A DNA stretch of 64,000 nucleotides from Ruditapes philippinarum (lineage: Eukaryota), in NCBI RefSeq assembly GCF_026571515.1, contig NW_026854958.1, positions 62,001-126,000 of the forward strand, written 5' to 3'. Below are positions 4,974 to 57,254 of the stretch, in pieces (position 1 is the first letter of the stretch; the number at the start of each line of letters is the position of its first letter). Below the pieces are notes generated by a model that was not told the origin of the DNA, ran no database searches, and saw only the letters and a list, made by a program, of their open reading frames with translations. The position numbers were made by a program, and so were the translations under genes.

Positions 4974-7900
4974 CTACAACGTTTTAATTGGTTCAATTTG
5001 TAATGACGCAGCTATATCATTCTGAAATAAAATAAAAATATTCTATTTAACATCGAGTGTATATATTGTATGTCGAGTTAATTTTAATATTTATTTGTAC
5101 ATCCATTATTCTGTATAAATTATTCCATTACCAAAGGTTCTAAAGATCGAGAGGTATGGTTGTTATATCCTTTTAGGTTCATTAAATATGTAGACGGTCA
5201 AGGACAAAAGCACAATTTCGAAAAAGTAAAATCGTATAAAGAAAGGTTCATAATTTGTGCATTACTATGCACGATACCTAGAAACCTTTAAAGCTGCACG
5301 CCAAGATGAGCTAAAATATTTCAAGAAATTCTTTAGAAAAATGTATTTAGATCTTTAAAGAAGTTAAAATATTCAATATTTAATTAATCATTTACATATT
5401 ATATGCGATTAATTACTGTATTTTTCAGTATAAATCACTATAATTCTACTGCGTAACTAATGCAGTGAGAGGTATTTATGTATAATTTGACCTCTTTTTT
5501 GTTATTAACGTAGATTGTAAGTGCCGTTTGCAATGTGTAAATTACTTTCTTTGTTCACCTCACAATATTTTACTTTTAAAAACATTTTCGAAATTTTCAT
5601 GAAAATAAGCATGAATCTGGAGGCATGCTGCTTTAAAAGTGTTTGTTAATGCTAGAATATGCATGTTGTTTTGAAATGTTGGCAGACGACAATATCGGGG
5701 CGTGAGTGCCGCAGAACGTATTGCTTCGCATGCACATGTGTACTAAATTTTCATTCAATGAAAGTATATCTGTTTACAAAATGATAGTTTCTTTGAAAAT
5801 CAGCCGGATTTCTGCTGTACTATCTAAAAAATATAATTAAAAAATCAGCACTTAAATCGGTATATTATATACAAAAGTCAACGTTGTTTTGGATAAACTC
5901 TCGGAAGTCAAAACTACTTGTTAATTAATTAATTAAGAAAAATAACAAGCTTAAATGACAAATGAGATCAAATCATCGATATATATATTTACAGGGTAGA
6001 CTTTAAAAAACTTACGGCATTTTTAATTTGGTTTGGATGGTACCAGATTCCACCTTGATTGTCACATTTTTCCATGTGTACTCTCTCCGGATCACCGGCT
6101 ACCCACACTTCAGGTTGACCATCTGCCTATTTGAAATATGTTTTTATTGATAATATTCGACTAACATATTAATTTTGACCAGTTATATATTATCTATATT
6201 GACTAATATCAAATGTTAAATTGCTGCAACGAGATTTGTTTACTATTAATTGCGCAAGAAATGAATACATACTGATTTACAGTTATATGAACTAAACTGC
6301 TTATATGCAAAGTTTTACGCTTACAAAATGGAACCATGCTTGATGAACGGGCATTCCCTCTAATTCAATCTATCAGCACCTAAAATAGTTTAACACGATG
6401 TTATTAATCCATTCACTGTTTAGGATTTTTCTAAACCACTCAGTAGCTCATTCATAAGTCAACGGACTGAAAGACAGACATGGATAGCAAAATCCCAAGT
6501 ATATTACATCCAACGAAGGGTAATAAATGTTTTCGACATCCAATGTATAGACTTACTGGTTCAAGATTCCTACAATGTTGCATGAGATCACTTAGTCTGT
6601 CTGCAAACCCAGGCGCAAACGCTTCCGGGTCTACTGCAACAAAGCACTGGCCCTGAAACGAGAGTATGATTTTTGTATCAACACAGCTATAGAAGACAGT
6701 TTGTGATTTGATGAGTCAAAAAGGGTCCGTACTCTCAGTGTCTGAAAGGCTGGACCGGCCCTCATTAAGCATAGAATACATACACAGTAATGTCAAAACC
6801 GAAATAACGCTGGCTTATTTCAATGGAATGCTGATTTCGATGGAATAACTAAGAATTTGACAATGGAAGGCTATTTAATGCAGGTTGAAATTCGTAGTAC
6901 ATTTGTTTCACTTTTATAATTACATGTATCTTTAAAATAAAATACCGGTATAACAAAAAAGCCAAAGTTAATGAATACTATTATTTTAACTTGATTCGAG
7001 CGATGTTTACAGTTGAAATTTGCTACATGCTGTCACTTTAGAATAATCGGATATTAAGTAATGCTTACTATTTATTTTATAATTTCAATTACTTTCTTTA
7101 AGACCTAAATAACGCAGAGATCGGATAAGGTTTGTGTACCAAGTTTGTTTGTCTATGAGATTCCTTCCATTTCCGGACATGGTGAGCGTAATTGGCACCA
7201 CTGAGTATTCCACAGAAAATATCTACCATCATTGACAATCCATAGCCCTTGTACCCGGCTTAAAACAAATTACAAACACATTATTCTTTGCACTGACTTA
7301 GTTGATAAAGAATTCAAAAACGGAGAAATAAAGATTAATTCATAAATTTGATAAATGACATATCATTCATATTGCAAGTCCATCATAGTGAAAGAAGCTT
7401 CAACGGATACAACCTAATTGTCCATAGTACGGAATATTTATCGTAGGTTTAGATAATTTTAGTATGGTCGGAAAATATAAACCGGGGGGTTAAAACCCCA
7501 CCCATGCCGGGAAATTCCAAACTTTTAATAATCTCGGGAAAGGATTATTTAGAAAAAAAACGAAAAAAAATTTCTAAACAAAAAAAATATCAAAATTTTC
7601 AATTTAAAAAATTTTTTAAAGAATTTTTCAAAATTTAATAATTAAAACCCCCGGAAAAAAAATACTCAAATTTGGGAACCCCGTGGAAAATTTTCCCCTT
7701 TGTTCTTTTTGAGAAGGGGCCCAAAAATTTTTTAACAATCGATTATATTGTTTTTATGTTAAATTCAAACTAAAACGCACTTTTAACGCCTTCAAATAAA
7801 GAAGAAATTATGGAGGGAGCATTCATTAATAAATTTAAAACGTGGGGGAAAATGGGGTTTAATCGAAAAATTGGGAAAAGGAGGAAAAAATTAAAGGGAC

Positions 7901-10900
7901 AAAAAGAGAAAAACGGAAAATTTTTGAGAGTAAGAAAACAAATAATAAAATTGAAAATTTTAGCATTTATATAAAAATGATAAACAAACATTTTTCCCTT
8001 AGATTGGGGGCCTTTGACCCAAGAGGACTTAAACTTTGCTTGTTTGGGATCAGTAGTTTTTGTTTAAAAGCCTTTAAATTCCAACCCGCCGACCAGCCGA
8101 AAAAAATGGGTTTGGCCCAGAAAGGGGGCGCCCCTTTATCTAAAAATTTTAAAGGTTGGAATTTTGAAAATTTTTTGGGAAAAGGTTTTCTCATTTTTTT
8201 TTCAAATTAAATATTTTTAAAACCTCATAGGATTTGGCCCTTTCATAGTATTTTTAAATTTTTGTGGGTGAGGATTTCAAAACTATATTAAAAAATACAT
8301 TTTGTGTTTTAAATTTATAAAAGGGATCACGTGGGTTGCCAAAAAAAAAATTAGAAAAGGGAAAAGGGTTTGGTTTAAAAAGTTTGTCTATACATTGTCA
8401 TTTAATGCAAAAAATTTGGGGTAACAATTTTAAAAACGGCTGGAACAATTTTGAACAAAAAATCATAAAATTTGGTTTTATGATTTTTTTTTGTGATTTG
8501 TTTTTCCTGACTTTTAAAAAGTCCTTTAGCTTTAAAGGGTTATAAATAAAATGTTACTATAAAATTTTTTTTTTTCCCCAATTTTTTTTTTCCGGGAAAA
8601 AAAAAGAAAAAAAACCCCAAAATTAAAAACCCTAAAAAAAATTTAACCTTTTCCCTAAACGCCAAATGCCAAAAAAGGTTAAGCCATATCTTTTTACGAA
8701 ACTGTTTGCCCTCTTGGGCTGGTGCCGGCAACAATATTGGTTGGTACCCCAGCAATTTTTCCCGTTTGGGGTCTTGTGGGAAAACCAAAAAAAGGGAGTA
8801 TTTATAAATACCAAAACCCTACATGATAGAAATAATATCCTTTTAGATTAACAGTGATAAAAAATGCTAATGATTCAGACTGGTAATATCTGTGGTGATC
8901 TATTGCGCAGAAAAAAAGTTATATGAAAATATAAGAGCAAGAGTATGACCTATTTTAGAAGAGTATTTGAAATAACTTATTAGTAATATCTAAAAAGAAA
9001 AAAAAACATACATTACCAAATATACATTGAGTGGTTTATATCATTTATTTATTTGAATATATCAGTATTAAAGTTGGAATATACTGGAATCCAAGATACA
9101 AATGATTTAATAGTTTGATTGTTTTTGTTTAATTCTGATAGAAATAATGTTAAAAGAATCTTCATTCAGGACATATGCATTTATTTCAATGCTTCGAACT
9201 TAACTTACAATCATTCCGTGCTTTAATGCATGCAGACCATACCAGCCGGCGATTCCAAAATGATTTGAACCTATTCAAAATAAGTTACATTATGCTTTTC
9301 ATTTTCTCAGTATTAGCTTATATTGGTGTTTCTGTTTTATTCATTATTTCATTTAAAAAAAGCATCAAATAAATGAAAAAGTACAAGTTTATAATTATTT
9401 TTGATATCAATGATAATATATGTATTATTGTATTCAAGGATAAATGGAAAGAAGCATTGCCACGAATTTGTCTACATAAAATATTGAAACATATATAAAT
9501 TGATCTAATTATCCAAGAGGACATAACAAGTACAAAGTCTGCTGCCAAACAAAATTTGTCACTTCATATCAAAGATGAAGATGAACTAACATTGAATGTT
9601 CTATTTTTGTATTCAAACATTTAAATTTCTATCATTACAATAAACTCTGAAGTTTACAATACAATACTATATGAAATTAAGGAAATTTTTTAAGAGGAAG
9701 ATATTTATTCTTAATTTACATTATCCATTCATTGTTATTGGTTTCAAGTCACGTGCGTAAGGATATACCTCGTGCCGACACCCAGCCAATGCCAGCGTCT
9801 TTTGCTTTCTTTATGGCAAGGTCCATGCAGAACCGGCCAATCACAGGTCCTGTAACAAATTTGAAAAATATGTTAATCTCGAAAACTTGCAATTTATAGT
9901 GTACGACATGGCTGTATGGAATATACATGTATGTAATGAAAATTTAGAGTACGCTTTTTTTCTGCTTAACGGTTCCCTTAAAAAAAGTCTACGTCTCATG
10001 ATAACTACGCGTAATAGTATATTTCAGAACACAATATGGTAAAAAAAATCTGCCACGTATACATATGAAAATAGCATACATAAACATACATGTAATTCAT
10101 AATTATGCTACAAATAAAAAAACGTTCAATGTATGATAAAAAAACATTTGATATTTACCTAGGATATTATTGCCTTCTACCAGCGCTGTTGCTATGGTTT
10201 CCTTGACAATTTCTGGGTTTCCTGTTGCCACGGTTGTCTTCGTTTTCACGTCAGTTATATACATGTCTAAAATGAATAAATTAATGAATGAATGAGTGAG
10301 TGAGTAAATGTGTCAATGAATGAATGAATGAATAAACGAATGAATGAATGAGTCGGATGGTCTTTATGACCAAAACAGAATGTAATGTTTCTACGAATCT
10401 AAGTTACTTGTACATATTTGATGCCAAATAACAAATTCAAGGCAAACATTTGGTGCCAAATAACAAGTTTCTAGATCTATAAATTAATTATCATTGAATA
10501 TCGTTACAGAGAACACCTTTAAATAAGTGTACATTTCAATGTTGTTAATTTCGTAATGTTATATGAAAAACCAACCTTTATTATATACACTTTAAATATA
10601 TTGATTATTCTTATCTTTTAAACTAGACATATACTATTCTATCCTGGCCTGGCACAAAACAGCATTTCATAGCACGTACTTCTATCTTGATAATTTCTAG
10701 AATTTCTCTAACAGAAATTGACCGTAAATTTTTTTTCCGTCACAATCTTAGTTTCAATGTTCCCTAGCGCTTTATAGTGATAGGAATTTACAAGAAACGC
10801 GGATTGATAAAAATTTCTTGGCCCGATGAATTTCAGGTAGTCAGAGAACCCAATTAATGGTTACGATCCTGTAGATAAAATCAGGTTCATCCTCGTAGCG

Positions 10901-13900
10901 GGACAAAAGATATCTTGAAATGTCAAGCCTGGTTCGTTTCTGGTCGTCACTCAACTGTCTTGGGACCCGTCTAGCGTAAACCTTTGACATGCCATAGACA
11001 TCAGTCAGAATTGCCTGAACTGAACCAAAGCTTATACCCACTTCCCTAGCAATACTTCGCAGGTCTCGCCGTCTGTCCCACATGACCAGACCGTACACAG
11101 CTTCAGCAGTTTCATCGTTGGTTGCCTCTTTTAAATGCCCAGGCTGCTCATTATCTCCAATGCTCTCCCTGCCCCTCTTTAATTCAGCTACCCATTTTGT
11201 ACAGTGCTATAGGAAGGGAACTCCTTCCCAAGTGTATCCATGAAGTCTTTATTGATTTCCCTGGGGGACATCCCTTTGGTCTAAATGACACACCCCTCTA
11301 CTGATGAAAGTGTGTTTTATGTTACTTAATCTGTGTATAACCGCGTGTAACTCGGTCACTTATCTTCAATAAGATATCGGTATCGACGTATCGCGTGAAA
11401 CTGTCAGTGTAGTGGCTAGAAGTTTATCGGGCACAGAACTTTTTGATCATACCTCGTAGACTGATCCGTAGTGTCAAAATCTAGTCTTGGACATAAAATT
11501 AATTAAATAAATCCAAATCAAATAGTTATGCATTTATCAAGTAAAAATTTATTCAAACAACAATAATCATAAGCAAAGAAGCTCTATCCTTCCATATTGT
11601 CATGTACAACTACTACTAATCATAGTATTTGTTTTTAAAGGCATATTCGGTATATATTGTGACATATTAATTATGTCCAAGGCTTGCGTAATTAGAAGAA
11701 TCTTACATTCGGCACAGTCTTGAATTTTATCATTTAATTAAAATCGTTAAATAAATTCAACATGTAAGATCATCTATATATCTTAATATAGATAATGATT
11801 GCATATATCCAATAATCATTGTCACACAACCAACAGATACAGTATGAATCTATCTGTGGCATTCTTCCTAGTTGATATTTGTGTTATCTCGTAATTCATA
11901 CTAAAAAGTGACAAACGATAGTACCAGTGGTAACCAGTTACAATATATTACGCAGAGGTATATAGACATTGCATTTGATTGGAATAAATTTATAATAAAA
12001 TGGCTCTAAACAACGCGGGAAATGGTGAAGTGTCCGGGCGAGTTAAGGAAATTCTGTGTTAACCATGTTTGAATGACGATAAACAAACACCAGCGGAAAG
12101 TTTTGTCCAACTTGTAATGAATTTCAGTGTTTGGATTGTTCCAACGTTCACAATACTCACGTCTTCTTAAAAAGTCACAAGTTAGTGAACGCGAATGAGG
12201 CGAAAATAAAACAAGGGTCGTTTTATATGAAAGGATTAGACAAATGTGATCAACATCAGAAAGTTTTAGAATTTTTCTGCGAAGATGATAATCAGCTCTG
12301 CTGCAGTACATGTGCCATTCTTAATCATCGTAAATGCCACAGTATTGTGGAAATTCTGAAGGTCGCTGAAAGGTCAACGAATAGAAGTTCAACTTTAAAG
12401 GTTAAAATGGAGGAAGTGAGAAAGAAGGCTAACATAATCGTGGACAGCATTGTCTCATCAAAAGAGAAACTAGATGAAGATGCTAAAGAAATACCAGTCA
12501 AAATACGTCGAAAGCGGGATGAAGTAATGAAAATGTTTGACGAGTTGGAAGTTTCCGTTCTTAAAGACTTTCAATCGTTTCGGAATGAGACATTAGACAA
12601 GCTGACAATAAACCAGTCTCGGAACGAAACATATCTAGCTGATATAACAGCATGTCTTGAAACGATTGACGAAGTGCATCAGAACGGATCTCTGGTACAA
12701 CAATTTATAGTAGAGCAGAAGATGCAGAATGACGTCAATGTTCTTCACACAAATGTCGATGCAGAATGTCATGTTTTAGAGACCGTGACTGTAAGCTTTG
12801 ATTTTGATGAAACATTAAAACCTTCTCCTCTGTCAGTCTTTGATTATGTACCAGGACAACTGACTCTAAATGTCTGTCTGTCAGAAGTAGCCAGGAATAT
12901 AGTTCCTTTTAACAAAGCAATGGTACTTACACCAGTAAAGTCCATTGATTTAAAGCAGGAAGAGGATGATATAAATGAGCCATTGTATTCAGGGATTGAT
13001 TTTTTCCCTAATGGAAGACTTGTTGCTGTTGATAATAGAAATAAACAGGTTTTAGTCTACAATGAGAAACTTGAGAAAGTAGGATCATATCAGTTATTTT
13101 ACATGCCATAGTCCGGTGTTGCTGTATCTGAGGATAAAGTAGCGATAACAAGTGCTATATAGTGCTTTAAAGTTAGACATTCGCGATGTTAAAAAATCTA
13201 ATGACATAACTATAGATAGAACAATTACAGTGACAACACAGTATGACTCGATATGTCAAAAAGATGAAAAGCATTTTGTCAGCGGGATAATTAATCATTC
13301 AAGACATGTTCGTATTATATCATCTACAGGAGAAGAGATAGATTTCAATATAAGCTTTCCGACTAAGTCATATCCTATAGATACAAGCGCTTGTAATTAC
13401 ATAAGGAGCAGTGATAAAGTGGTGCTTACAGATAGCTACGAGCATACTGTCTACATATAAGGTGACTTATAGGTGCAATGGTCCGTGTGTTTTTGTATGT
13501 ATTCTTGAAATGTATGTGAAATGATAAATGCACAATGTCACTATAATAAACAATTTACTTACTTNNNNNNNNNNNNNNNNNNNNNNNNNNNNNNNNNNNN
13601 NNNNNNNNNNNNNNNNNNNNNNNNNNNNNNNNNNNNNNNNNNNNNNNNNNNNNNNNNNNNNNNNNNNNNNNNNNNNNNNNNNNNNNNNNNNNNNNNNNNN
13701 NNNNNNNNCGTCAAGATAAATGAAAGAGTCGTTGTGAAGGATGATCAGCTAAACATGCTGAGGGAGCCGTATGGTGTAGCAGTTGGTCCCCTGTGATACT
13801 TTCCTGGTTTGTAGTTTGAGAACAAACTCCATTTTACAGATATCACAAACTGGACAGATCTTATCATCGTACAAGATAGATGTGGAATATCCAAGCACAA

Positions 13901-14127
13901 TTTGTGTCTCACGTGATAAATTTATTTTATTTTTTGCTTATATATAAACTTATACAAAACTCACCCAGTCTGTTCAAGCCGTGACTGTAGTGGCCCCTGT
14001 AATCTGCAGATACCAGAAGATCAGCCAGGGATGATCCATGTTCTTCTGAGATCCTAACTGCTTTCATACACCTGACGACAAACGCGTGAAACTCATGCAG
14101 GGGTACAATTGAGCCTTGTGATGCCAT
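4974..14127 (-). CDS. Ldh_2/YjmC-like (malate/L-lactate dehydrogenase type 2 family) oxidoreductase, unit B; 10 coding exons, ~355 aa; best candidate functional copy
   Basis: Exons 14127-13965, 10266-10159, 9849-9769, 9270-9209, ~8817-8650 and ~8149-8000 (both garbled), 7258-7140, 6652-6557, 6126-6016, 5021-4974. The 8 readable exons have GT-AG sites, consistent phases and no stops. Motifs DYRGHYSHG, SNHFGIAG, GYKGYGL, VAGDPE are read here; TNTSP and GTNP are read in paralog exons. Confidence 0.8.
5288..5636. mobile_element. TTAA-flanked MITE (non-autonomous DNA transposon)
   Basis: TTAAAGCTGCACGCC... and ...TCTGGAGGCATGCTGCTTTAA are inverted repeats; second copy at 32072-32410. Confidence 0.65.
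10270..10352. repeat. (TGAA/TGAG)n microsatellite next to the host exon-2 acceptor
   Basis: Read directly; present at the same position in units C, D and E. Confidence 0.9.
10855..11458 (-). mobile_element. Truncated Tc1/mariner element (5' TIR plus degenerate N-terminal transposase)
   Basis: IAREVGISFGSVQAILTDVYGMSKVYARRVPRQLS resembles the mariner HTH/WVPR-L region; end TA-CGAGGTATGATCAAAAAGTTC on the minus strand at 11458; absent at the homologous site in unit E (~50110-50130). Confidence 0.85.
12000..13922 (+). pseudogene. TRIM-like copy 2 (unit B), pseudogene
   Basis: ATG at 12000, TAA at codon 21 (12060-12062), frameshifts, TAG at 13109-13111, insertion with AATAAA/(ACTT)n tail at ~13459-13708 (partly N), 3' end deleted at ~13922. 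Confidence 0.92.
13565..13708. other. Assembly gap (N run)
   Basis: N bases. Confidence 1.
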
Positions 14128-15600
14128 TGTGAAATAAACTATGGAATAAAAAAGAAGTTAAATTTGAATAGAAATTAAGCACATACACTGTCGGCTATCT
14201 GTTTTATTTGTCCATTTTATATTATTATAGATCTTCTATCTGTTTTGACGTAAATTATTAACAAAATCTTGTTTCCAAGTTACGTCACGAAAATGCAATA
14301 TAAGGAAACATGTGCATACACTATAACACATGCAAAAATCGACATATTTCATGTCAGAAATATCGAAATAAGCGTGAAAAAGCTGATTTCATTGGATTAT
14401 TTCGATCTTAATAAGGAAATAGTTTTAATTCTTCAGTGCTCCATATGCACAGTAATTGCCCGATTAAGTATTAAAAGATATTATAAAATGAAGAAAAATA
14501 AGGAAATAGATAATATATGAATTAACTATAGTCGAAACAAATTTGAAACTATCGATACATAAAACAAATGCAACAACATAAGTGACATTGTTTTATAATC
14601 ATAAAGGTTTTACTCAGTTATCCGCGTGACCAAAATATTCAGAAATATTCACGTGTCAATAAGGTGACATATATGTAGTGTCACATCTTTATTAATGAAA
14701 GTGCGTATCGCATTTTGTAGCGTAAAATTACTACATTAGCTTATTGTTGAAATGCACAAGAATACATTAAGTATATGGCCAATACTTTCATTTCACACCT
14801 TATAAAATGTAATCAAATCTCCCAATACAAATGATTATTAGATCAAATCTTCTCAAATTAGCAGCATTTTCGTTTTGCCAGTCCAAAAAAAAAAACCCAT
14901 ATCAAATCGATATTGCACTCTATCAAATATGAAAAACAAGATCAACAAGGAAAGGCGGCGTTCAATGAACGCAACCCCCATATGAACCAGCAACAAGAAC
15001 CAATGGCATGGAGCCCAGGCGGACCCCAAACATAAAAAGGACAGGGCAACGACACGTTAATCATTAAATGATAAATAATTTGTAACTGATAAGGAATTCA
15101 AAGAAAATAATAATAGGCCCACAAAGGGGAAGGAGACCGGGGGAAGGGGGGGGGTAATCAAAGAAATAAAAACTAGAGGCAATGGGGAAGATACTTACCG
15201 TAGACGAGAAAACAACAAGGGACACAAGCAAAAGTGTCACCAAAACAGTATGAAACAACATAGACATACATCTGAGGAACACAGTGGGGCGCCGCCTTGG
15301 AACGGTCAGCAGCATAATAATGACTGCTGGGGAGTTTAAACCGGTTAATGGTGCACCAAACCTCGCTCTTAGCCCCACCATGTTCCTATAAACGAGACAG
15401 TGTAAATAAAATGAATCCCCGCCAAGTGAAATTCTAACAGTTGTCATGGTTACAAAAGGTTAAAGAAGTAAAACACTAAAATGATCATGTAGAAACATAT
15501 AAAAGTAAACCCAATGACCATAACAAAAGTACTCAATGTCCTAAAGGAAGACAGAGCAACAAGAAAATCACCTACAAGGGCCCGACGAAGCAAGGCAGAA

Positions 15601-25382: not shown

Positions 25383-25387
25383 CTAAA

Positions 25388-37700: not shown

Positions 37701-37881
37701 CAATGCTAACAAAATGGGTATTTCTTTTAGCTACAAGAAATAACTGTTATGTCATTGTTATGCAAGCTTAGCTAACATTTCTTTTGTATTGAAAACTTAG
37801 AAATAACATTACTTTGCATGTTAACCAATTTACTTCGGCCAGGTATCTTTCTAAAAGATACTTATTGTTTCTTAATATACA

Positions 37882-42780: not shown

Positions 42781-43076
42781 TATTTGTACAAGTCAAAATA
42801 AAATTACTATTATGTTTATTTTCCTTGTTTAAAATTTGATATGAAAGTTAACGTTAATTTAACCCTCCATTGATATCAATATAGTTAGATGTACATGTAT
42901 ATTTCAAATATTACCGAATTAAGATATCTCCGATTTGACATGAGATTGCCATTCCTAGATGCCCTGACGGTGCAGGTCATTTTCGTTGTGATTGATTCTT
43001 CCGTCATTTACAATTTACCTCACCTCTGACATATACAAAAGTTATCACCGCCTTGCAAAAGAACGAAAACCGATAG

Positions 43077-43281
43077 GGGCATTTCAACTTCATGAATTCA
43101 TAAATTCCCGATTTCTACTTCACGAATTCCCGATTTCACATTCATGAATTTACGATTTAAACTTCTCGAATTCACCTTCGATTTCAACTTCTCGATTTCA
43201 ACTTAATGTCGTTGAAATAGTGAATTCACGAACGTGAATTCGAGAAGTTGAAATCCAAGGTGAATTCGAGTAGTTGAAATC
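43077..43281. repeat. Foldback-like tandem/inverted repeat abutting the exon-1 donor
   Basis: Same motif as 1968-2347. Confidence 0.7.
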
Positions 43282-46200
43282 AAAACTCACCCAGTCTGTT
43301 CAAGCCGTGACTGTAGTGGCCCCTGTAATCTGCAGATACCAGAAGATCAGCCAGTGATGATCCATGTTCTTCTGAGATTCCAACTGCTTTCATACACAAA
43401 CGACAAAACACACAGAGGACAAACTCGTGAAACTCGTGCAGGCGAACAATTGATTCTTCTGACGTCATTGTGATATAAACTGAGGGATGAAACAAGTTTT
43501 ATTTAGAAATAAAACGCACACTGTTGGTTATCCGTTTCATTTGTCCATTTTTATATATTTTAAATCTTGCTTAGTTCTACTTTATTTGTCTTTATATTTT
43601 AAAACTCGATATGCTTTATTTGTGTTGATGTAAATTATAAAACGAAATGTTGTTTCCAAGTTACGACACGCAAATGAAATATCTAGGAAACATGTACATA
43701 TACTAATACACGTGGGAAATAGACATATTTAAGTAAGAAATATCGAAATTGGCGCGATAAAAAGCTGATTTACTTGCATTATTTCGTTCTTAACTGTATT
43801 ATAATAGATATCATGGTAATGCTATAGATGATGTTGTTGTTGATGATGATGATAATTATTAGAGAATAGTTTTAACTCTTCCGTGCATTAAATTGTTGTT
43901 AGACAGTGTGCTCAGTAATATGCCCCAACAATTATCAAATAGTAAACCGTACAATATTATAAAATAAAGACAAATATAAGAAAAAAGATCTTATATGAAT
44001 TAACTATGGTCGAAACAAACTTATAACTATGGATACATAAAAAACAAAAGCAACGTGAGATTGTTTAATAAACTCAGTTAACTAAGCGACCAAAATGTTC
44101 AAACTTTGTATGCGTTAATTAACTGACATATGCACTGTCACATCGTAAATTATAAAAGTGCGTATCGCATTTTGTAGCGAAAAAATACTAAGAAAGCTTA
44201 TTGTTGGAATTCACAAGAATACATCGAGTATATGGCCATAAACATACAATCTTTAACCCCTTATAGAATGTAATCAATGAACTTTTAGCGTTTGGGCCAT
44301 GTGGTCTCTTTATACAAATAATTATCTGACCAAATCTTATCAAATTAGCAACAATTTAATTTTGCCAGTAAAAAACAAAAAAAACAAAACAAACAAAAAT
44401 CACCATACATGTATCGCATCTATATTGCACCCTATCTAGATTCGTTTCTTATTTTCCGAGTCCAAAAAAATCGATTTTAAATCGATATTGTACACCGTTT
44501 AGCCTCGTTCTCGTTTTCATTTTCAGAGTCCACATAAATCATATCAACTCCTTGTTGTACTCAAATTATCAAAGTTCTGCCAAAATGTTAAAAATTTGAT
44601 GGTTTTAATCATATATGTACGTCATTATGTGATATATGGTTGAGAGCAATGCCGAATCTGTAGTACTCGTACATAGCTGCAAAACCTATATTAGACTCCG
44701 CTCATCCAATATAGGATTGACAGCTGTGTAGTTGTTCCAACAGAATTCAGTATTCAGAATTCAACAATGAATAATAACCTAATAATATCAACAGTCAGAA
44801 CTGCTCTAAAAATCAACATACGGGTATATACGTAATGATATTTAGCTAAGAACTTATAATCTAAAAAACAAACGCTGCTGTTAATTAAAATAATCTGTTA
44901 GCTTAGCATAAATTAAAACTTTAAGCTTTTTCATATATTTCATAAGTAGTAAATTATTATTACATACTCACCAGATTACATGGCACCTGTATTCACATGA
45001 ACTGTGTAAATAAAACTCAAAACTTCTAAAATGACCTTCTTATCAGTATAATTATCTATGTGAAAATTATATTGTTAGACACGTTTTCACTCGGAACACC
45101 GGCGGTATTTCATCTGCATCGCATTATATCATGTATAATATGATTGTGTAGAACTAATATGTCTACAACTTTGTAGATAAAATTGTTCAACTCTTAGATG
45201 GCGTGTGGCATATTTCGCCACATTGTTAAAAAATAAACGTTTAACAAGTAAAAATCAAACTCAAAACAAAATAAAAATGGAAAATCCAGATTTTTTAAAA
45301 ATAAATTATGAAGATTACATATGAAGCATAGGCATTCAACTTGTGAACGAAAAAAATATGAGCATAATGTCACTCCAAAGCTGCGTCCCCACCTGAATTC
45401 ACTTTGAAAATTGAAAGAAGCGAGAATATTAAGGAAGTCTTTAAATGTAAAGACCCACATTGCTTCAATCTCTTTTTCACCATCGTACCATTTTGCATCG
45501 CGGGTACGGACGAAATGAAAAATCACGATTGTCCAAACGGAACACCGTACAAAATACTTTCGTTATTTTTACGAAACATTCATTAATGTACAAAAATGGA
45601 ATGTATTGATCAGGGGAAATAACTGCTTCGGGGAGTTTACAAAACACCTAGCTTGAGTTACTTCCTCTAGTCAGTTAAAAGTTATGACCGTGTCAATATC
45701 ACGTTTTTTTTTTAAACGGAACGCGCACATCTTTTCATTTGCTCACTTTGACGAGACGAAACGCAGTGTTTTATAGTAAATAAGTGTACAAGCAATCCAT
45801 GATATATCAGAAAGGTTTTTTATCAGAACAATTGAGTATGTAGTTATTTCTTATAACCGGTGTCATCAAAACAAGCGATTTCTAGCAAATCTTCTGTTCC
45901 CTTTCTCACTGTTGTTTAGCAATAGTATATATGGTTAAAATATTACATATTTACTTTTGCATCGCACTAATGCATTGATGTTTTGTACTACAATCATATA
46001 TTTCGGGCGAAATGGATACGGTACACTCCTTTTTTTCAAATTTGTTAATTATATGAATTTTTGTTTCAAAGTTTATCTAATAATTTCTCTTTCGTTATTT
46101 TCTTCTCTCTTTTTCGCGGAAATTATTTTTACGCAAATATAAGACTATTTTTTCATTTCGTATTTTATAGTTGTTTCTGATATTGTAATGTATATATGAC

Positions 46201-47974
46201 TAGATGAAAGAATCTTTTTTGCTGGATAGTTTAATTATAAACGAGTCAAAAAAATCATTTTGAATGTTCAATATAAAAATAATATGAACGTTGATTAATA
46301 AACTAGCATTTCCTGAAAGAACTGGGTCGCTATAGAGAAATAGATGGAGTTTGATGTTGTCGACTTTCAAGTTTTGTAGTAATGTACTACACACAACAAT
46401 AAAAAAGTAATAGGTAGGAATTAATAAAATATCAAAAATGAAATCAATAAGTTGGGCGTAGATTGATTAACATATTCGTAGCTGCTAATTGATTCTATAG
46501 GTATGCTTAGGATGTTACCATATTCGAATATGCTTTAACAATCAAGAAATCAATTATAAGAAAAGGGAGTAAGCACATAAAAATAAAACGCTTGCTTGGG
46601 TATATCAACGGAAAGCCATTTTATAGAGAATTATTCTATTGTTGTGTCAGTCTCGAATCCGAGAAATCAGTGTTTTAAGGAGGTATGGTTTGAATTATCT
46701 TTAAAATTTCAGTTTATATCACCTAATGCGAAAGATGAGACACTTTAAAACACTGAAAACAAAATATTCAACAGAAACACGGAGTGACGTATACAATGTA
46801 AAACTATGGTATAAACAATTTCTTTGGAATTTTCTCTTTTTTTCAGATTGAGTTAAGCTTTAAAGAATCAATGTTATAATGCTAATAAACCTCGTCAAAA
46901 TCAAAATAATATTAAGAATTTGTCCAATATATTACAATAATATTTTTTAATAAGAATCAGATCTTTGCTAGCATCTATCTCAACTTCTGTTTATTTGACT
47001 ATAAAAATGAATACATATATTTACAAAAAATATCACTACAGAAAGATGTTTCTACTGCATTATTTAATAAGTTGCATACTTCTGCAAGCAATGACATATA
47101 TATATTCTTTATTATGCATAGTCTCATTTATGCATATTTAAAACATAGACAGATATACAACTTAAACAATGTACACGTATAGCCATATAAGACATGTCAT
47201 GTACGTTCCAAATCTTTTTATATCACCAACTTTAGATAACGAGTTGGCGAGCATCCTTTTATGTGCGTGAGGAATTTATCTTCCTGATGAAATATCTTAA
47301 ATATTTCGAATGCAAACTGAAAGAGTCGAGTTGAGAATAAAAACTGTTAAAGACAATATTTATTGTCTTCAACATTGACATTATACGCACTTAAAAATAT
47401 TTTAAGGGGCCGAATGATCGTGCGATACTACATCTAAGCTGATTAATACGATAACATTTCGTTAAACTAAAACATTTAAGCTGTTGTGTTTGTATTAAAG
47501 TCAAACAGATCATTTTAAAGCATATTTTCCTTGATTGTATCTCATGTAAAGTTATGATGAAACGAAAGAACAATAACAAAGAAAAAACTTGTTAAACATT
47601 TTTTAAATTATTACAATAGAGAGACACCTGGCTATGTTTTGTTTTTCTAATAGTAAATAACTTTTGAACTTTTTAAAACAGTGTCAAAATTAGACTTTGT
47701 GCAATTTCTCTTACATTCAATACATGTACTTGATGTCATTTTCTAACTATATATAAAGACAATTAGTAATTGCAAAATTACATGGCATCAATTTGCTTCC
47801 GTACTTTATGTGTTCAACTTAAATCATTCCGTGCATTAATGCACACAGACCATACCATCCAGCAATTCCAAAATGATTTGAACCTGTTAAATAAAAGATT
47901 AAATAAGTTTGTCTGTTTTTCATATTTTTAGTATTAGCTGACATTGGGGTCACTGTTCCTTTTTATTATTTCAA

Positions 47975-48336
47975 TTAAAGGCACATTTTGCCTAAAAAAA
48001 TGTTTTCTTCTTCCGAAAATGGAAATATTAATTTTATAATGTTAAAATAATAGTTAACGACATGTTATATGCTTATCGCCTGAATGATATAGCGATAATT
48101 GTGAAATAATTTGTCATAAATATAGCAAAATGTAAATAAAGTAATAATTTGACCTTCATACAAAATATTAAATCTCTAAATCTCTATATCTACTAATTGC
48201 CAAAACGATACAGAAGGGCAAGATGGTTTAGGTAACTGGCCAATGATTAACTTTTTGGAAACTACAACAGGAAACCAAAATCACGGCTTTTGGGAAATTA
48301 AAGTAAAAGCATTTCTAGGGCATAATGGGCCTTTAA
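47975..48336. mobile_element. TTAA-target MITE (Kolobok- or piggyBac-like)
   Basis: TTAAAGGCACATTTTGCCTA / TAGGGCATAATGGGCCTTTAA; the empty site in unit C (~24425) has a single TTAA; related ends at ~29315, ~31100 and ~49350. Confidence 0.75.
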
Positions 48337-49655
48337 AAAGGCACATGTGAAATAGGAAAGAACTGGTCAATCCTGGTCAAGGTTAATAGTGAAATTATTT
48401 TGATCTCTGTGATAATATTATAACTACTGTAATTTCATTAACTAAATAAGATAGACGGCTAAAAAATCAAAGGAGCTTTGTGACAAAAACGGTTACATAT
48501 AAAATATTGAAACAGAAATAAATAGAATAAACTATCAAGGAGGACATTTACATAACATGTAAAAGTAGCGGCTATTTTATAAAATGACAACAGGGCAATA
48601 AAGAATAGGATGATTTTAGTAAGAAATTGTCACTTCATGTTAAAGATAATCTCACTATATGTGCTCCATGTTTGTATCAAATATTTAAATTTACATTTAA
48701 ATTTACTATACACAACTATATGAAAATTAAAAGGAAATATTTAAAAAGGGGATATTTATTCTTAATATATATTAGCCTTTCATTATTATTGGTTTCACTT
48801 GCGTTAGGATATACCTCGTGCCGACACCCAACCAATACCGGCTTCTTTTGCTTTCTTTATGGCAAAGTCCATGCAAAAGCGACCAATCACAGGTCCTGTT
48901 ACAAATATGAAAACCTGATAAGATGATAGTGTATAACATGTGTAAGTAAGATAATTATGAAATGAACATTTAGAGTACTTTTTTTCTGCGTACGGTTCCT
49001 TTATTGGCAGATGCCTCAGAACGAAAAATTTGTTTCCTTCTGTGGAAGGGCAAATATGTGTTTTTCAATGTTGAAATAATGTATGTAGAACATATTAAAT
49101 GCCTATCACCAGAGAAGCTAACATTGTATGTGAAACAATTTGTCATAAAGGTAGCTAAATATAAATAAAGTCGTATTTTGACTTCCATACAAAATAATAA
49201 ATCACTATATAACTGTATATACTCATCGCTAAAACACAAAAGAAGCGAAAGTTGTCTCAGATATATTGCTAGTGACTAAACTTTTGTAACTGGACGCCAA
49301 ATAAGAAATGAAAAATAAAACTGACAATATGTTTAGGCTTATTGGGCCTTAAAAAAGTCGGCGTCTACAGATCAAGTATTTCAAAACACAATATGCTATA
49401 AAAGCTGACATTTTTACATATGAAAAAGTATACATGCATGTAATTCGTATGCTACGTTCCATATTTCATACCAAAAACGATCAGTCCATTATAAAAACAA
49501 CAGGAAATTTATATAGTTTATTGTTGCCTCCTACCAGCGCTGTTGCTATGGTTTCCTGAAGTCAGGATTTCTGGATTTCCTGTTGCCACGGTTGTCTTCG
49601 TTTTCACGTCAGAAATATACATGTCTAAAATAATTGAATGAATCAGTGGGTGAGT

Positions 49656-49882
49656 NNNNNNNNNNNNNNNNNNNNNNNNNNNNNNNNNNNNNNNNNNNNN
49701 NNNNNNNNNNNNNNNNNNNNNNNNNNNNNNNNNNNNNNNNNNNNNNNNNNNNNNNNNNNNNNNNNNNNNNNNNNNNNNNNNNNNNNNNNNNNNNNNNNNN
49801 NNNNNNNNNNNNNNNNNNNNNNNNNNNNNNNNNNNNNNNNNNNNNNNNNNNNNNNNNNNNNNNNNNNNNNNNNNNNNNNNNN
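49656..49882. other. Assembly gap within a microsatellite
   Basis: N bases; flanked by (TGAG/TGAA)n and (TTAA)n to 49990. Confidence 1.
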
Positions 49883-50607
49883 TTGGTGGGTTGGTGGATG
49901 TATTTTGGGTGACTGTGTGAGTGAGTGAGTGAGTGAATGAATGAATGAATGAATGAATTAATTAATTAATTAATTAATTAATTAATTAATCGGACGGTCT
50001 TTATGATCGAAACAGTGTGTAATGATTCTACGAATCTAAGCAGCATTTCATAGCATGTACATGTAAATATTCCTAATTTCTATAGCTGAAATTGACCGTA
50101 AATATTTTTAAGAATAATGCAAGATAGGCTGATCCGTAGTGTAAAAAAGTAAGTTTAAACAAAACGGCTTTACATGAAAATAATTAGAAAAGTCTTTCAT
50201 ATTCTGAAGTACAATTATTCATTATCAATGAATCTTTTTTTTAAAACGTATGTTTATGCTGAGTCATATTAACTTTGTCCAAAGTTTTCGTAATTTGAAG
50301 AATTTTTTTTGGCACAATCTTGAATTTTATCACTTTAATTAAACTCACATGTAAGATTGTCTATATATCTCAATAAAGATAATGACTGCGGACCTTAAAT
50401 TCTTTGATATTATAACCTATAATCATTGTCACACAGCAAACAGATACAGAGTGAATCTATCTAGGACATTCTTTCATATTGATATATATGTGTTATCATA
50501 AATGTGTTTAATATCTTTATGCCGTTAAAAAAAAACAGACCAATATATCGCCCTGTTTATTATACGTTTCATACATAATTCTACTCAATATTTAATAATC
50601 ATGTTGA

Positions 50608-50672
50608 AATATGATAAACAAGATCAACGAGGAAAGGCGGCGTTCAATGAACGCAGCCCCTACACGACCCAG
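50608..50672 (-). mobile_element. Short 3'-terminal fragment of the same Penelope-like family
   Basis: AAACAAGATCAACGAGGAAAGGCGGCGTTCAATGAACGCA matches 14934-14973. Confidence 0.75.
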
Positions 50673-51091
50673 AACACTCAATCTTTATCTTAATGGCCAA
50701 ACAAGATATAAAACCTATAAATGGCGGAGAACGATATAAAAAACGTTAAAAACCCGATTAAAAAAAATAACAACCCCAATAAAAATAAAATGCCATAATA
50801 TATTATTCAAAATATACTTATCCAAAGCCTGAGGGAAAAGGGGCCCGAAAATTCGATGGGAAAGCATGATACAATCGAAACTACTGGGCTCTTTCCTCAT
50901 TCTTCGATCGGTTATCGGATAGATAATAACCTAGGACGTTTGATTGGCATACATTCTAAAGGGATCCGAGTGAATAAGATAAATATATTTACTTTCGCAT
51001 TCCGACTAGAGATAGTACCAGTAGTAACCAGGTACAATATATTACCCAAAGGTATATAGGCATTGCATTTGTTCAATAACTTTATATCAAA

Positions 51092-52822
51092 ATGGCTGAA
51101 AACAATGCGGGTAATGGTGAAGTTTCGGGGCGAGTAATGGAAATTTTGTGTCAACCATGTTTGAATAACATTTTACAAAGAACAGCGGACAAGTTTTGTC
51201 CAACTTGTAACGAATTTCAGTGCTTGGATTGTTCCAACGTTCACTACACTCACGCCTTCTTAAAAAGTCACAAGTTAGTGAATGCGAATGAGGTGAAAAC
51301 GAAACAAGGTTCGTTTGATATGAAAGGATTAGATCAATGTGATCAACATCAGGAAGTTCTAAAATTCTTCTGTGAAGATGAGAATCAGCTCTGCTGCAGT
51401 ACCTGTGCCATTCTTAATCATCGTAAATGTCACAGAATTGTGGAAATTCTGAAGGTCGCCAGAAGGTCAACAAAAACAAAGTCAACTTTAAAGGTTACAG
51501 TGGAGGAAGTGAGACAGAAGGCTTACAAAATCGTAGACATCATTGTCTCATCAAAAGAGAAACTAGATGAAGATGCTAAAGAAATACCAGTAAAAATACG
51601 GCAAATGCGGGATAAAGTAATGAAAATGTTTAACGACTTGGAAGTTTCCATTGTTAAGGACGTTCAATCGTTTCGGGAAGAGACATTAGAAAAGATGTCA
51701 ATAAAGCAGTCTCAGAACGAAAAATATCTAGGTGATATAACAGCATATCTGGAAACGATTGACGACGTGTATCAGAACGGATCTCTAGTACAACAGTTCA
51801 TAGTAGAGCAAAAGATGAAGAATGACGTCAATGTTCTTCACACAAATGTCGATGCACAGTGTCATGATTTAGAGACCGTGACTATAAGCTTTGATTTTGA
51901 TGAAACATTAAAACTTCCTCCTCTGTCAGTAACTGATTATATACCAGGACAGCTGACTCTAAAATTCTGTCTATCAGAGGTAGCCAGTACTATAGTTCCT
52001 GTTAACAAAGCAATGATACTTACACCAATAAAGTCCATTGATTTGAAGAAGAAAGAGGATGATGTAGAAGAGCCATTTTATGGAGGGATTGAGTTTTTAC
52101 CTGATGGTAGACTTGTTGCTGTTGATAATAACAACAAGAAATTCTTAGTTTACAATGAGAAGCTTGAGAAAGTAGGATCATATCAGTTATCTTACCGGCC
52201 ACAATCCGTTGTTGCTGTATGTGATGAGGAAGTAGCGGTCACAAGTGTCATTCCTTTAAAGTTAAACATTCTCCATGTTAACAAATCTAATGACATAAAA
52301 TTAGATAGAACAATTAAAGTGACAACAAAATATGTCTCAATATGTCAAAAAGATGATAAACATTTTGTCGGCGGGACAATTGATCATTCAACACCTGTTC
52401 GTATTATATCATCTACAGGAGAAGAGAAAGATTTCAATATTAACTTTCCGAATAAGTCATATCCTGTAGACACAAGCGCTTGTACTTATATAAGGAGCAG
52501 TGATAAAGTGGTGCTGACCGATAGATACGAGCATATTGTCTACATATATGACGTCAAGACAAACACGAGAGTCGTGGTGAAGGATGATCAGATAAATGAG
52601 CCGCGTGGTGTAGCAGTTGGTCCCTCTGATACTATCCTGGTTTGTAGTAAAGGAACAAAGTCCATTGTACAGATATCACAAACTGGACAGATCTTATCAT
52701 CGTACAACGTAGATATGGACTATCCAAGAACAATTTGTGTCTCACGTGATAAATCATTTCTTGCAATAACAAACTCATGTACTGGTGAGATAAAACTACA
52801 GAAGTTTAAAATATCATTTTGA
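51092..52822 (+). CDS. TRIM-like copy 5 (unit E), 576 aa, intact
   Basis: Uninterrupted ORF with the same architecture as copy 4; AATAAA at 52859. Confidence 0.93.
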   Translation: MAENNAGNGEVSGRVMEILCQPCLNNILQRTADKFCPTCNEFQCLDCSNVHYTHAFLKSHKLVNANEVKTKQGSFDMKGLDQCDQHQEVLKFFCEDENQLCCSTCAILNHRKCHRIVEILKVARRSTKTKSTLKVTVEEVRQKAYKIVDIIVSSKEKLDEDAKEIPVKIRQMRDKVMKMFNDLEVSIVKDVQSFREETLEKMSIKQSQNEKYLGDITAYLETIDDVYQNGSLVQQFIVEQKMKNDVNVLHTNVDAQCHDLETVTISFDFDETLKLPPLSVTDYIPGQLTLKFCLSEVASTIVPVNKAMILTPIKSIDLKKKEDDVEEPFYGGIEFLPDGRLVAVDNNNKKFLVYNEKLEKVGSYQLSYRPQSVVAVCDEEVAVTSVIPLKLNILHVNKSNDIKLDRTIKVTTKYVSICQKDDKHFVGGTIDHSTPVRIISSTGEEKDFNINFPNKSYPVDTSACTYIRSSDKVVLTDRYEHIVYIYDVKTNTRVVVKDDQINEPRGVAVGPSDTILVCSKGTKSIVQISQTGQILSSYNVDMDYPRTICVSRDKSFLAITNSCTGEIKLQKFKISF

Positions 52823-53374
52823 AGACATTGATTTTTGACATTATTATGTTTTACAATTAATAAAGCACGATATATATGTCATCAGTGAAAATAACAATAT
52901 CAAAAGTTGAAAACTTTTTTAAATTATGCAACTTTACACTTCAATAATAAAATGTCTGTCTTTATATATGTAATAAGAATTCAGAGGAAATCAACGCGTT
53001 ATTACTGAAATATGTACAGTAATAATATTCATCAATATTACATATTAATTCATTAATGTGTATTATTCTGATTATTTTTTTATGACATCTTATGATATTT
53101 TGAAATTTTTCTCCCACATTCACAGCAACCATTTACTAGTTGCTAACATTTCTATACAATGAACAAAGATAGCATGTATCTCATCTAAAATTCTGCCATT
53201 ACAATGAAATCAGCTATTCTAACATACATCAATATATTCAAAGCGACCAGTTTTTAGATCTATCGGTACAACGTACATGAATTTGACAAAAATCAATGTG
53301 CTAAATGTATATTTCCTTCAACATAGCGTTTTGTTTTAAAATAAAAATTGTATAGCTTTGTAGAGTGTAAAGTG

Positions 53375-54078
53375 TATGATGAATAATGAACTTTGTATGA
53401 AAAATGTTATGTGTCTTTTGTATGTATCTTTTGTCTTATAAATGATGAAATTTTTATTCCAACTTTAATGTATCTTTTGTATTATAAATGATGAACTTTG
53501 TATTACAAATGTACTGCATCTTTTGCATTATAAATGATGAACTTTTTATTACAAATGTAATATATCTTTTGTATTATAAATGATGACCTTTGTATTACAA
53601 ATGTAATATATCTTTTGTATTATAAATGATGAACTTTGTATTACAAATGTAATATATCTTTTGTATTATAAATGATGAAATTTGTATTACAAATGTAATG
53701 TATCTTTTGTATTATAAATGATGAATTTTGTATTACAAATGTAATGTATATTTTGTATTATAAATGATGAACTTTGTATTACAAATGTAATGTATCTTTT
53801 GTGTTATAAATGATGAACTTTGTATTACAAATATGATGCATCTTTTGTTTTATAAATGATGATGAAATTTGTATTACAAATGTAATGTATCTTTTGTATT
53901 ATAAATGATGCACTTTGTATTACAAATGTAATGTATATTTTGTATTATAAATGATGAACTTTGTACTACAAATGTAATGCATCTTTTGTATTATAAATGA
54001 TGAACTTTGTTTTACAATTGTAATGTATCTTTTGTATTATAAATGATGAACTTAGTATTACAAATATAATGTATCTCA
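53375..54078. repeat. 46-bp minisatellite, ~15 copies
   Basis: Read directly. Confidence 0.93.
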
Positions 54079-54269
54079 ATGTTAGTATTAGTCAAAATAA
54101 ATTTACTATTATGTTTATTTTCCTTGTTTATATTTCGATTTATACGTTAATTAGACCCACCATTGATACCAATACAATTTATTTACTTTTTACAGTCATT
54201 CACAATGTACCTCACCTCTGGCATGTACAAAAGATATCAGCTCCTTGCGAAAGTAACGAAAGGACCAGT

Positions 54270-54656
54270 AGGGGCATTTCAACTTGAAATTCCCGATTTC
54301 ATCTTCATAAATAATTTCCCGAATTCTAATTCACGAAGTCACGATTTTAACTTCATGAATTCCCGATTTCAACTTCTCGAATACACCTTCATGAATTCAT
54401 GATTTCAACTTCATGAATTCATGATTTAAAGTTCATGAATTCACGATTTAAACTTTACGAATTCACAATTTCAAAATTCAGCTTCTAGAATTCACGATAA
54501 CAGCAGTTTACTTCGTGAAGTTGAAATCTTGAATTCGTGAAGTTGAAATAGTGAATTCACGAAGGTGAATTGGAGAATTTGAAATCAAAGGTGAATTCGA
54601 GAAGTTTAAATCGTGTATTCATGACGTTGAAATCGTGAATTCGTGAAGTTAAAATC
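54270..54656. repeat. Foldback-like tandem/inverted repeat abutting the exon-1 donor
   Basis: Same motif as 1968-2347. Confidence 0.7.
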
Positions 54657-57254
54657 AAGAATCACCCAGTCTGTTCAAGCCGTGACTGTAGTGGCCCCTG
54701 TATTCTGCAGATACCAGAAGATCAGCCAGGGATGATCCATATTCTTCTGAGATCCCAACTGCTTTCATACACTTCACAACAAACGCGTGAAACTCGTGCA
54801 GGGAACAATTGATCCTTCTGACGTCATTGTGATATAAACTGAGGAATGAAACAAAGTTAAATTTGAATTGATTGAAATTAAGGGCAAACACTGAAGATCA
54901 TTCTTTTCATCTTTCATCTTTCATTTTATTTTAAATATTGCTATGCTCTTCTTAATTTACTGTTGCTTTTATTTTATTTTAACATAGTTACTATATTGTG
55001 TATTTGTTTTGACGTACTGTCATTGCCTGAACTTATAAAAAATAATCTTGTATCCAAGTTACGTCACGCAAACACAATATAAGGTAACATGTGCATACAC
55101 TATAACACGTGCCAGGTCGACATATTTCGTGTAAGAAATATCGAAATTGGCGTGAAAAAGCTGATTCATAGTTTTAATTCTCCAGTGCACTATGTACGCA
55201 GTAATGTGCCTGATTAAGTTTTAAAAACCCGTGCAAAATAATAAAATAAAGAAAAATAAGAAAATAGATCTTATAATTGAATTAACTATAGTCGAAACAA
55301 ATGTATAACTATGGATGCATAAAAACAAAAGCAACGTGACATTGTTTTATAATCATATAACCACGTCACAAAAATGTTCAGAAATATTCACGTGTCAATT
55401 GGGTGACAAATGTAGTCTCATCTTTATTGATAAAAGTGTGTTTCGCATTTTGTAGCGTTAAATTACTACGTTAGCTTATTATTGAAATGCACAAGAATAC
55501 ATTGAGAATATGGCCGATACTTTCATTTCACACCTTATAAAATGAAATCCAATCTCCCAATACAAATAATTATTAGATAAAATCTTCTCAAATTAGCATT
55601 TCTTCGTTTTGCCAGTCCAAAACAACCCATATCAAATCGATATTGCACTCTATCAAGCTTTTTTTTTCCGAGTCCAAAAAATCCATTTCAAATTTCTATT
55701 GTATTCCATTTAGCCTCGTTTTCATTTTCAGAGTCCACAAAAATCATATCAATTCCTTATTGTACTCAAATTATCAAAGTTCTCCCAAAGTATTAAAAAG
55801 TTGATGGTTGATGGTATATATGTCCTTCATTATGTACATGGTTAAGTACAATGCTGAATCTGTAGTACTCGTACAAAGCTGCAAAACCTATATAAGACTC
55901 CGCTCATCCAATATAGGATTGACAGCCAACAGAATTCAGTATTGTACTCAACAATGAATAATATCAACAGTCAAAACAACTCTTAAAGATCAACATTTAA
56001 ACGTTATGATATTTAGCTATTAAAACGCTGCTATTAATTAAATAATATGTTAACTAAGCATTAATTTAAACTTTAAACTATTTAATATTTTTCATAAGAA
56101 GTAAATTAATTAAAAATTAAATAAGTAGTAAATTATTATAACAGTTTTATATGTGTATGGCATCTGTATTCACATGAACCGTTTAAATATAGCTTAAAAC
56201 TAAAATGACCCTCTTATCAGTATATCAATGTGAAAATTATATTGTTAGACACGTTTTCGCTTTGAACACCGGGGGTGTTTCATCTGCATCGCTTTATATC
56301 ATGTATAATATGATTGTGTAGAACTATTAATATATCTACAACTTTGTAGATAAAATTCTTAGAGGGCGTGTGGCAAAAGCATTTATTTTTTTACATTGTT
56401 AGATAATATACGGTTAACATTCATGAACAGTTTCTTGTAAAACAACAACACTCACAACCACAACAACAACGAACAAAATCAACAACAACAACAACAAATA
56501 AAACAACAACAACAACAAAAACCAACAACAACTAAAACCGGAAAACCCAGATTTATAAAAAAAATGTGAATATTAGATCAACATAGGAAACAGAGGAATG
56601 GTTGAAATCTATAAAGTTTTTTAAATTAGGTTGTTGTTTTTGTTGTTGTTTTTCCCCCAATAGTTTCACAATGATAGATCTACCCGTACTGTATTTGTGC
56701 TCTGTTCTTATACTTCAGTTATGGAAAAGATTAATGCTGTGAACTGTTCCAGATTATGTTAGTCTTAATATTGGTGTCAGTATCATGAAACGTATCAAAA
56801 TTCATAATTTTGGCTAATTATTGCTCCGTAGAAATTGCATGTAGGTAAATTATCATCACTTTGTGAATTATATTATGCCATTGATGACTGATATTTAACA
56901 CCACATTTCTAGTGCGTGACTAACGCTGTAAGAGCTATATATTTTGTATATTTTGAACATTTTTGTAATTTACGTGTATTTTATAATTGCCGCTTTACGT
57001 ACATTTTAATTTTTTTATGAAAATTAACATGAATCTGGCAAGTTGCTTTAATTAATCTGACAGATAAAAGCCTACAGTAGGGAGTTTGTGGGCTTTCGTC
57101 TAATAAAAGCCTGGCTACAGAATGCTAATAATGAAGCACAATAAAACAAAACCGTGTTGCATACTATATTATGTTGACAGTAGATTATGACAATTTAATT
57201 GAAAAGGTATTCGTTAAATATTTAGACAAGATGGCGGTGAGTAAAAACGCGATC

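Follow-up and report, generated by a model that had tools for sequence, protein, structure and literature searches.

We analysed a 64,000-nucleotide stretch of the Ruditapes philippinarum genome (1.41 Gb), positions 62001-126000 of contig NW_026854958.1 (C3445 below; the stretch is called the window), which holds a tandem array with a unit length of 11-15 kb. Each full unit contains a host gene on the minus strand, with ten coding exons, for an Ldh_2/YjmC-like oxidoreductase, and a TRIM-like gene on the plus strand, whose single coding exon lies antisense in the intron between host coding exons 1 and 2. The TRIM-like product has 576 residues, with two B-boxes, a coiled coil and an NHL-like end, and is without a RING. 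The array is real and well resolved and its decay is lopsided: the TRIM-like frame is open in most units and the host is broken in most. Amplification of the whole module in the manner of the human RCCX locus, with decay of the enzyme gene as a passenger, is probably the best explanation of this pattern. A preliminary description had proposed instead that units keep either the host or the TRIM-like gene and that the complementary losses possibly relieve antisense interference; the reciprocal and the interference claims are unproven.

The nested arrangement is borne out by a 191-nt contig in sample X4, a contig set assigned to RNA by guess and with zero depth in intron bins. The contig joins host exon 1 (at position 13965) to exon 2 sequence, therefore the intron holding the TRIM-like gene is spliced out, and the RefSeq host proteins join the same exons. 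We scored ten units, six more than the four of the preliminary description: Z to the left of the window, A-E, F and G (contig 196-224 kb), and one each on contigs C12361 and C6551, the hosts of these last two being judged by exon 1. Unit H and a second TRIM on C6551 (124 and 104 indels) were left out of the counts. So was a pair of host 3' fragments on C13359, for which the sequence fetched showed no TRIM. An open TRIM frame is present in 8 of the 10 units (Z, A, D, E, F, G, C12361 and C6551), with a single +1 in C and many lesions in B. Only the host of B has no stop, frameshift, splice or start loss, although up to three hosts pass if Z and F are counted; those of A, C, D, E, G, C12361 and C6551 are broken. 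Retention thus favours the TRIM, with eight TRIM-only units against one host-only unit (sign test p 0.039), or six against one (p 0.125) if hosts Z and F are counted intact, the units not being independent in either comparison. They share history in at least two places: B and F are sisters (bootstrap 100, with a shared intron insertion), and A and E have a common break in exon 4, with exons 5-10 missing in both, so the truncation of the host preceded a duplication of that unit. As described before, the TRIMs of D and E are perfect and that of C nearly so, and they lie in hosts damaged by stops, frameshifts and lost splice sites and exons; the TRIM of C also has an in-frame 3-nt deletion. Unit C, with both genes broken as assembled, contradicts the idea that each unit keeps one of the two.

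Selection was assessed from pairwise comparisons and counts of private changes, expressed as the ratio of nonsynonymous to synonymous substitution rates (dN/dS, omega). Hosts Z, B and F are under purifying selection (private-change omega 0.19, p 0.002; 0.26, p 0.008; and 0.23, p 0.11, respectively), whereas hosts C, D, E and G evolve near-neutrally (omega 0.69-0.89: D 0.69, C and G both 0.81, E 0.89), with A at 0.48. The pooled counts for Z, B and F, 21 synonymous and 14 nonsynonymous changes, differ from the 37 and 78 of A, C, D, E and G (p 0.005), and host B does not differ from Z and F together (p 0.74). A functional host and an intact TRIM therefore coexisted over most of the Z and F branches, barring conversion. 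Pairwise omega of 0.41-0.62 shows that the intact nested TRIM copies are still constrained. Pooled private omega is 0.39 in their B-boxes and 0.98 in the NHL part (p 0.012), as would be expected of a diversifying recognition domain. The counts for TRIM B and TRIM F do not differ significantly (15 synonymous and 41 nonsynonymous changes against 10 and 21, p 0.63).

The case for reciprocal loss centres on unit B. All eight readable exons of its host (1-4 and 7-10) are free of stops and indels, with AG and GT intact, so this part of the preliminary description stands; the product is not unblemished, since four strongly conserved residues are changed relative to 27 homologs, namely G25R (G in 26/27), E244D (E in 27/27), A269T (A in 26/27) and L311W (L in 22, M in 5). 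Other samples mostly have the conserved letters at these positions and the changes look allele-specific. Exons 5-6 lie in a noisy stretch; they are present in colinear order and are garbled in the manner of an unpolished consensus, with 210 of the 237 inserted bases there copying an adjacent base, compared with 2 of 9 in a Z/F control, and a real lesion may lie underneath. The TRIM of B carries TAA at codon 21 (position 12060) and TAG at codon 371 of 576 (13109), so that the second of the two stops is not early as had been stated. It also has the reported frameshifts (-1 at 12097, +4 at 13159, with small indels at 13754 and 13788), an insertion of about 250 nt (13460-13708, partly N) and a 3' deletion. 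Compared with its sister F, unit B lacks 1374 nt past 13921; this deletion took away the last TRIM codons and the 3' untranslated region, the lost 3' end of the TRIM lying about 40 nt from the host donor.

Unit F carries a 7-nt tandem duplication in host exon 2 (C3445:201405-201519). The sisters B and F therefore have opposite lesions as assembled, each without the other gene, and this pair is the best case for reciprocal loss. B is the only unit in which the TRIM is dead and the host has neither a stop nor a frameshift, so the reciprocal part of the pattern is one event, and complementary loss beyond chance does not emerge from one-sided Fisher tests (p 0.25 or 0.50 for the four window units; 0.10-0.53 for ten units, depending on the scoring of C, Z and F). 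Scoring to the left of the window, which had been proposed as a check, did yield a unit with an intact TRIM and an open host, although not a flawless one. The host of Z keeps every splice site and has no stops, and when its upstream exon u1 is spliced to exon 1, as RefSeq model P0031 does for B, the frame is open over 364 codons; its exon-1 ATG is changed to TTG and it carries R44S.

Expression of host B, which the preliminary description left to be checked, is supported by X4. Over 110 sites the main exon-1 contig shows a single difference from B, compared with the 5 that F would give and 11-20 for the other units, and its loose end matches B upstream exon u2, a sequence that occurs a single time in C3445. 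There is also a weaker exon-1 contig, with 7 differences from B over 110 sites. Altogether, X4 fits a host transcribed from B and a TRIM transcribed from elsewhere, in one sample. In X23, of which about 6/100 of the run was read, depth was at most 0.19 over host exon bins and unusable. X21 is on record as RNA-Seq and was rejected as such; it has even intron and both-strand coverage and loose ends at GATC, behaves like a DNA proximity-ligation library and was treated as DNA. Comparisons between samples cover the difference rows listed, 40 of 1223 in one comparison (mostly high-copy repeats) and 40 of 256 in another. B-type sequence is present in X1, X5 and X21, B-type TRIM variants recur in three other samples, and other clams hold B-type host 3' sequence with 0-2 differences in 225-320 nt. 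The codon-21 stop of TRIM B was seen in 0/6 contigs in X1 and 0/6 in X5, and its +4 is seemingly present in part of the X1 depth (43.6 of 91.4) and in one of four X21 reads, so the lesions of TRIM B are at least partly polymorphic or allele-specific.

We propose that a TRIM-like gene entered an intron of the Ldh_2 host, in antisense, in this lineage, and that unequal crossing-over then copied the whole unit in tandem. Extra TRIM copies would have been favoured and kept, with diversification of their NHL ends, under what may have been selection for copy number. The enzyme would have been needed once, with paralogues elsewhere, and so could decay as a passenger in most units. TRIM B would have died by ordinary birth and death, its coincidence with the working host B probably being due to chance. 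We infer an immune role for the TRIM-like protein; read plainly, the array would clearly show, in a bivalve, how an immune-type gene drives the amplification of a module in which a housekeeping passenger decays. Interference is unneeded in this scheme and is poorly matched by the lesions, since these are mostly coding, and stops and frameshifts do not halt transcription; moreover, neither upstream host exon is missing in A, D or Z, TRIM B keeps its upstream region, with 84-94% identity to intact F over 540 nt, and what its 3' deletion took away is the TRIM's own end.

Several observations weigh against module amplification with passenger decay, the main competitor of which is un-nesting driven by interference; there an active host would silence the antisense TRIM in cis, the useless TRIM would decay, and TRIMs in dead-host units would be kept. 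The sole TRIM dead by multiple lesions lies in the sole unit whose host is seen spliced. TRIM contigs in X4 are non-B at 12442, 12725, 12774, 13069 and 13436 and no B-type TRIM was seen among them, although contigs show presence and not absence, and a pseudogene transcript may be merely unstable. No unit is cleanly intact for both genes, as Z has lost its ATG and has R44S at a residue invariant in 27/27 homologs, and F has the +7 in exon 2; the low omega of hosts Z and F could be mimicked by gene conversion from B. TRIM omega also tends to be higher where the host is constrained, albeit without reaching significance (Spearman -0.59, p 0.12, n=8; -0.49, p 0.26 without B; pooled p 0.053 with B and 0.19 without B). 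The opposite lesions of the sisters B and F fit un-nesting as well, as do the upstream host exons that C, E and partly F have physically lost, and interference between nested genes is supported in Drosophila in the available part of PMC5174743. We nevertheless consider un-nesting unlikely, given that it concerns a single TRIM-lost unit, that Z and F keep constrained hosts beside intact TRIMs, that hosts A, D and Z may still be transcribed, and that the second exon-1 contig of X4 has 7 differences from B; furthermore, opposite-strand nesting is the commoner and a tolerated arrangement according to the available parts of PMC5174743 and PMC8467205. It is similarly doubtful that tandem duplication has served as a route out of nesting, the unit with the transcribed host losing its TRIM and the remaining units shedding the host. 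If true, the array would be a natural series, graded from loss of the host promoter through coding death and recent death to a living host, in which antisense interference could be measured in cis. Either way, it offers about ten nested-pair copies in varied states of decay, distinguishable by single-nucleotide polymorphisms, in which interference can be tested within one genome.

The RefSeq models raise a further reading, in which the enzyme transcript is stitched from two units or host B of this haplotype is itself decaying. Isoforms X1-X3 (P0031, P0035) consist exactly of B exons 1-4 (window 9209-14138) and Z exons 5-10 (C3445:39727-43471), about 28 kb apart. Host B has a private omega of 0.06 in exons 1-4 and 0.62 in exons 7-10 (3 synonymous and 6 nonsynonymous changes, both counts small), in addition to its changed residues, and in Z, where the exon-1 ATG and R44 are gone, the 3' half is clean. 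We regard this as improbable: such a splice would have to jump some 28 kb, passing over four intact exons and the 3' end of B, the chimeric models would be explained most simply by the failure of B exons 5-6 to align, and other clams hold the B-type 3' sequence, mostly with the conserved letters. Still harder to credit is that the pattern is partly an assembly artefact, with the +1 of TRIM C, the +7 of host F and the join across the noise in B being errors, and some units being alleles placed in tandem. Several stretches of the contig are unpolished, unit H and one C6551 TRIM are noisy, and RefSeq P0002, the F host at its full 355 residues, agrees at 354/354 compared residues and reads through the +7, so that P0002 either corrects an assembly error or masks a real lesion and we cannot tell which. 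However, dS (synonymous divergence) between units is 0.07-0.20 in the TRIM, far above the approximately 0-3% difference of B-type sequence between clams, and the multi-lesion TRIM B, whose variants recur between samples, and the hosts of A, C, D, E and G are not polishing errors. The B/Z chimera and the read-through F model mean that RefSeq models at this locus need care.

Module amplification with passenger decay has its closest counterpart in human RCCX (STK19-C4-CYP21-TNX), which is likewise a tandem multi-gene module with opposite-strand overlap and with chimeras formed by recombination, and in which several copies of the immune gene C4 are functional, whereas the enzyme gene CYP21 and the TNX gene each have one working copy and otherwise occur as pseudogenes, as far as the available part of PMC8362596 describes it. 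The clam counts run the same way, with the inner gene open in 8/10 units and the passenger in 1 (to 3)/10. The array may thus work like RCCX, by analogy and not by homology. In contrast to the clam array, with intronic nesting and about ten older copies, the RCCX genes overlap at their 3' ends, and a segment with working CYP21A2 has a working C4B, whereas the clam unit with the working enzyme has lost the immune-type gene. The clam pair also resembles nested pairs of Drosophila and mammals, where an intronless young duplicate lies on the strand opposite a conserved multi-exon host; the available parts of these surveys report an opposite-strand bias and evidence for interference in Drosophila, and do not describe a co-duplicated pair with differential loss (PMC5174743, PMC8467205). 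Un-nesting is rare in human and mouse in the available part of PMC8467205, with 4 cases against 56 post-split nestings among 1:1 orthologues, and the cost of antisense nesting is debated. The literature listings searched contained nothing relevant on this locus, nor on co-duplicated nested pairs that underwent reciprocal loss.

The host is predicted to be an Ldh_2-family oxidoreductase: P0002 matches PF02615 (Ldh_2) with 383.3 bits (cut-off 38.8) over profile positions 3-328 of 333, and structures 1v9n (E 2e-69) and 2x06 (E 1.5e-64) in PDB, which places it with the type-2 malate-lactate dehydrogenases (YjmC-like; AllD, ComC, DpkA). In the nested protein zf-B_box exceeds its cut-off, profile matches link residues 20-223 to TRIM28 and 85-232 to TRIM72, and NHL scores 22.9 bits in E and 18.1 in D (cut-off 20), with partial matches to Brat, Thin and TRIM2/3/71. 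It shares with TRIM-NHL proteins (Brat, TRIM2/3/71, Thin) B-box1, B-box2, the coiled coil and, apparently, the NHL-like C-terminus, and differs from them in its missing RING, single coding exon and venerid-specific expansion. No RING was found with Pfam in the 576-residue frame, which starts with B-box1 at residue ~20 (RefSeq models have 573-578 residues), so we use the label TRIM-like and do not regard the protein as a canonical TRIM ligase. Incomplete tripartite motifs form a recognised TRIM-like class and a B-box orthogroup is expanded in bivalves, according to the available parts of PMC2533329 and PMC8382680, respectively. Most members of the large clam family are free-standing (2014 candidates in the genome gave 76 scored matches), and host exons were absent in the 10-30 kb fetched around the next-closest TRIMs (74-87% nucleotide identity) on 9 other contigs; six further Ldh_2 loci lie on other contigs. 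In Mercenaria, the closest TRIMs are largely on an 88.1-Mb record and the host orthologue is on an 82.4-Mb record, named by none of the at least 120 TRIM matches listed. Insertion of the TRIM-like gene into the host intron would thus seem to be lineage-specific.

Table. Genes, exons and related features of the array in window coordinates
Feature	Position	Strand	Remarks
TRIM-like A, 3' part	1..666	+	Whole gene at contig 60936-62666, open 576-codon frame
Host A exon 1	2526..2699	-	Exons 2-4 left of window; exon 4 without donor; exons 5-10 missing
Host B, Ldh_2/YjmC-like oxidoreductase gene	4974..14138	-	Spliced exon 1-exon 2 contig in X4
Host B coding exons 1-4	14138-13965, 10266-10159, 9849-9769, 9270-9209	-	
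Host B exons 5-6, garbled	8817-8648, 8139-7999	-	
Noisy consensus, holds host B exons 5-6	7470..8820	.	Colinear with F/Z, homopolymer-inflated; identity to F 0.61-0.76
Host B exons 7-10	7258-7140, 6652-6557, 6126-6016, 5021-4974	-	
TRIM-like B pseudogene	12000..13921	+	Stops at codons 21 and 371, frameshifts, insertion, 3' deletion
Host B upstream exon u2, 3' end	18526..18535	-	Fits loose end of X4 exon-1 contigs; exact end plus donor once in contig
Host B upstream exon u1, 3' end	19060..19075	-	In-frame ATG (RefSeq isoform MRWKQV..., P0031)
Host C pseudogene, exons 2-9 only	21002..25382	-	Exon 3 acceptor lost, exon 5 stop, exon 7 +1
TRIM-like C	26488..28216	+	Single +1 at 27643 in A run, otherwise open
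Host D pseudogene, all 10 exons	31743..43479	-	Exon 3 +2 and donor lost, exon 5 -2, exon 6 donor lost, exon 7 stops
TRIM-like D, intact 576 aa	40233..41963	+	
Host E pseudogene, exons 1-4 only	47822..54838	-	Exon 1 -1; exon 2 +4 and donor lost; exon 4 without donor, a break shared with A
TRIM-like E, intact 576 aa	51092..52822	+	

Exon 1, u2 and exon 10 of host C were searched for and not found. At 2355-2402 host A exon 1 is partly duplicated, with its 3' end and donor. Upstream of host B exon 1 there is a high-copy insertion (14864-17700) with broken reverse-transcriptase-like minus-strand frames at 15683-17542; these frames gave zero Pfam matches reaching the cut-off, and we take the insertion to be long interspersed nuclear element (LINE)/Penelope-like from its motifs. 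Another high-copy element, about 550 nt upstream of TRIM B (10500-11450) and common to unit F, presumably holds a mariner-like transposase fragment. A 46-nt minisatellite (4-14 copies) is found 3' of each TRIM (1186-1643, 28767-28946, 42504-42777 and 53422-54076) and is deleted in B. The hypervariable TRIM-like codons 347, 388, 520, 521 and 564, with 5-7 residues among 9 copies, all fall in the NHL part. More unpolished, indel-rich stretches occur at C3445:226000-241000 and 160000-166500 and in the second TRIM of C6551, and unit H resembles a noisy copy of G. The window also holds an RVT_1 fragment at 57135-57563 (50 bits). Two alike open frames of 675-683 codons on the minus strand, at about 17900 and 188000 of C3445, flank the array region, which suggests another duplicated gene.

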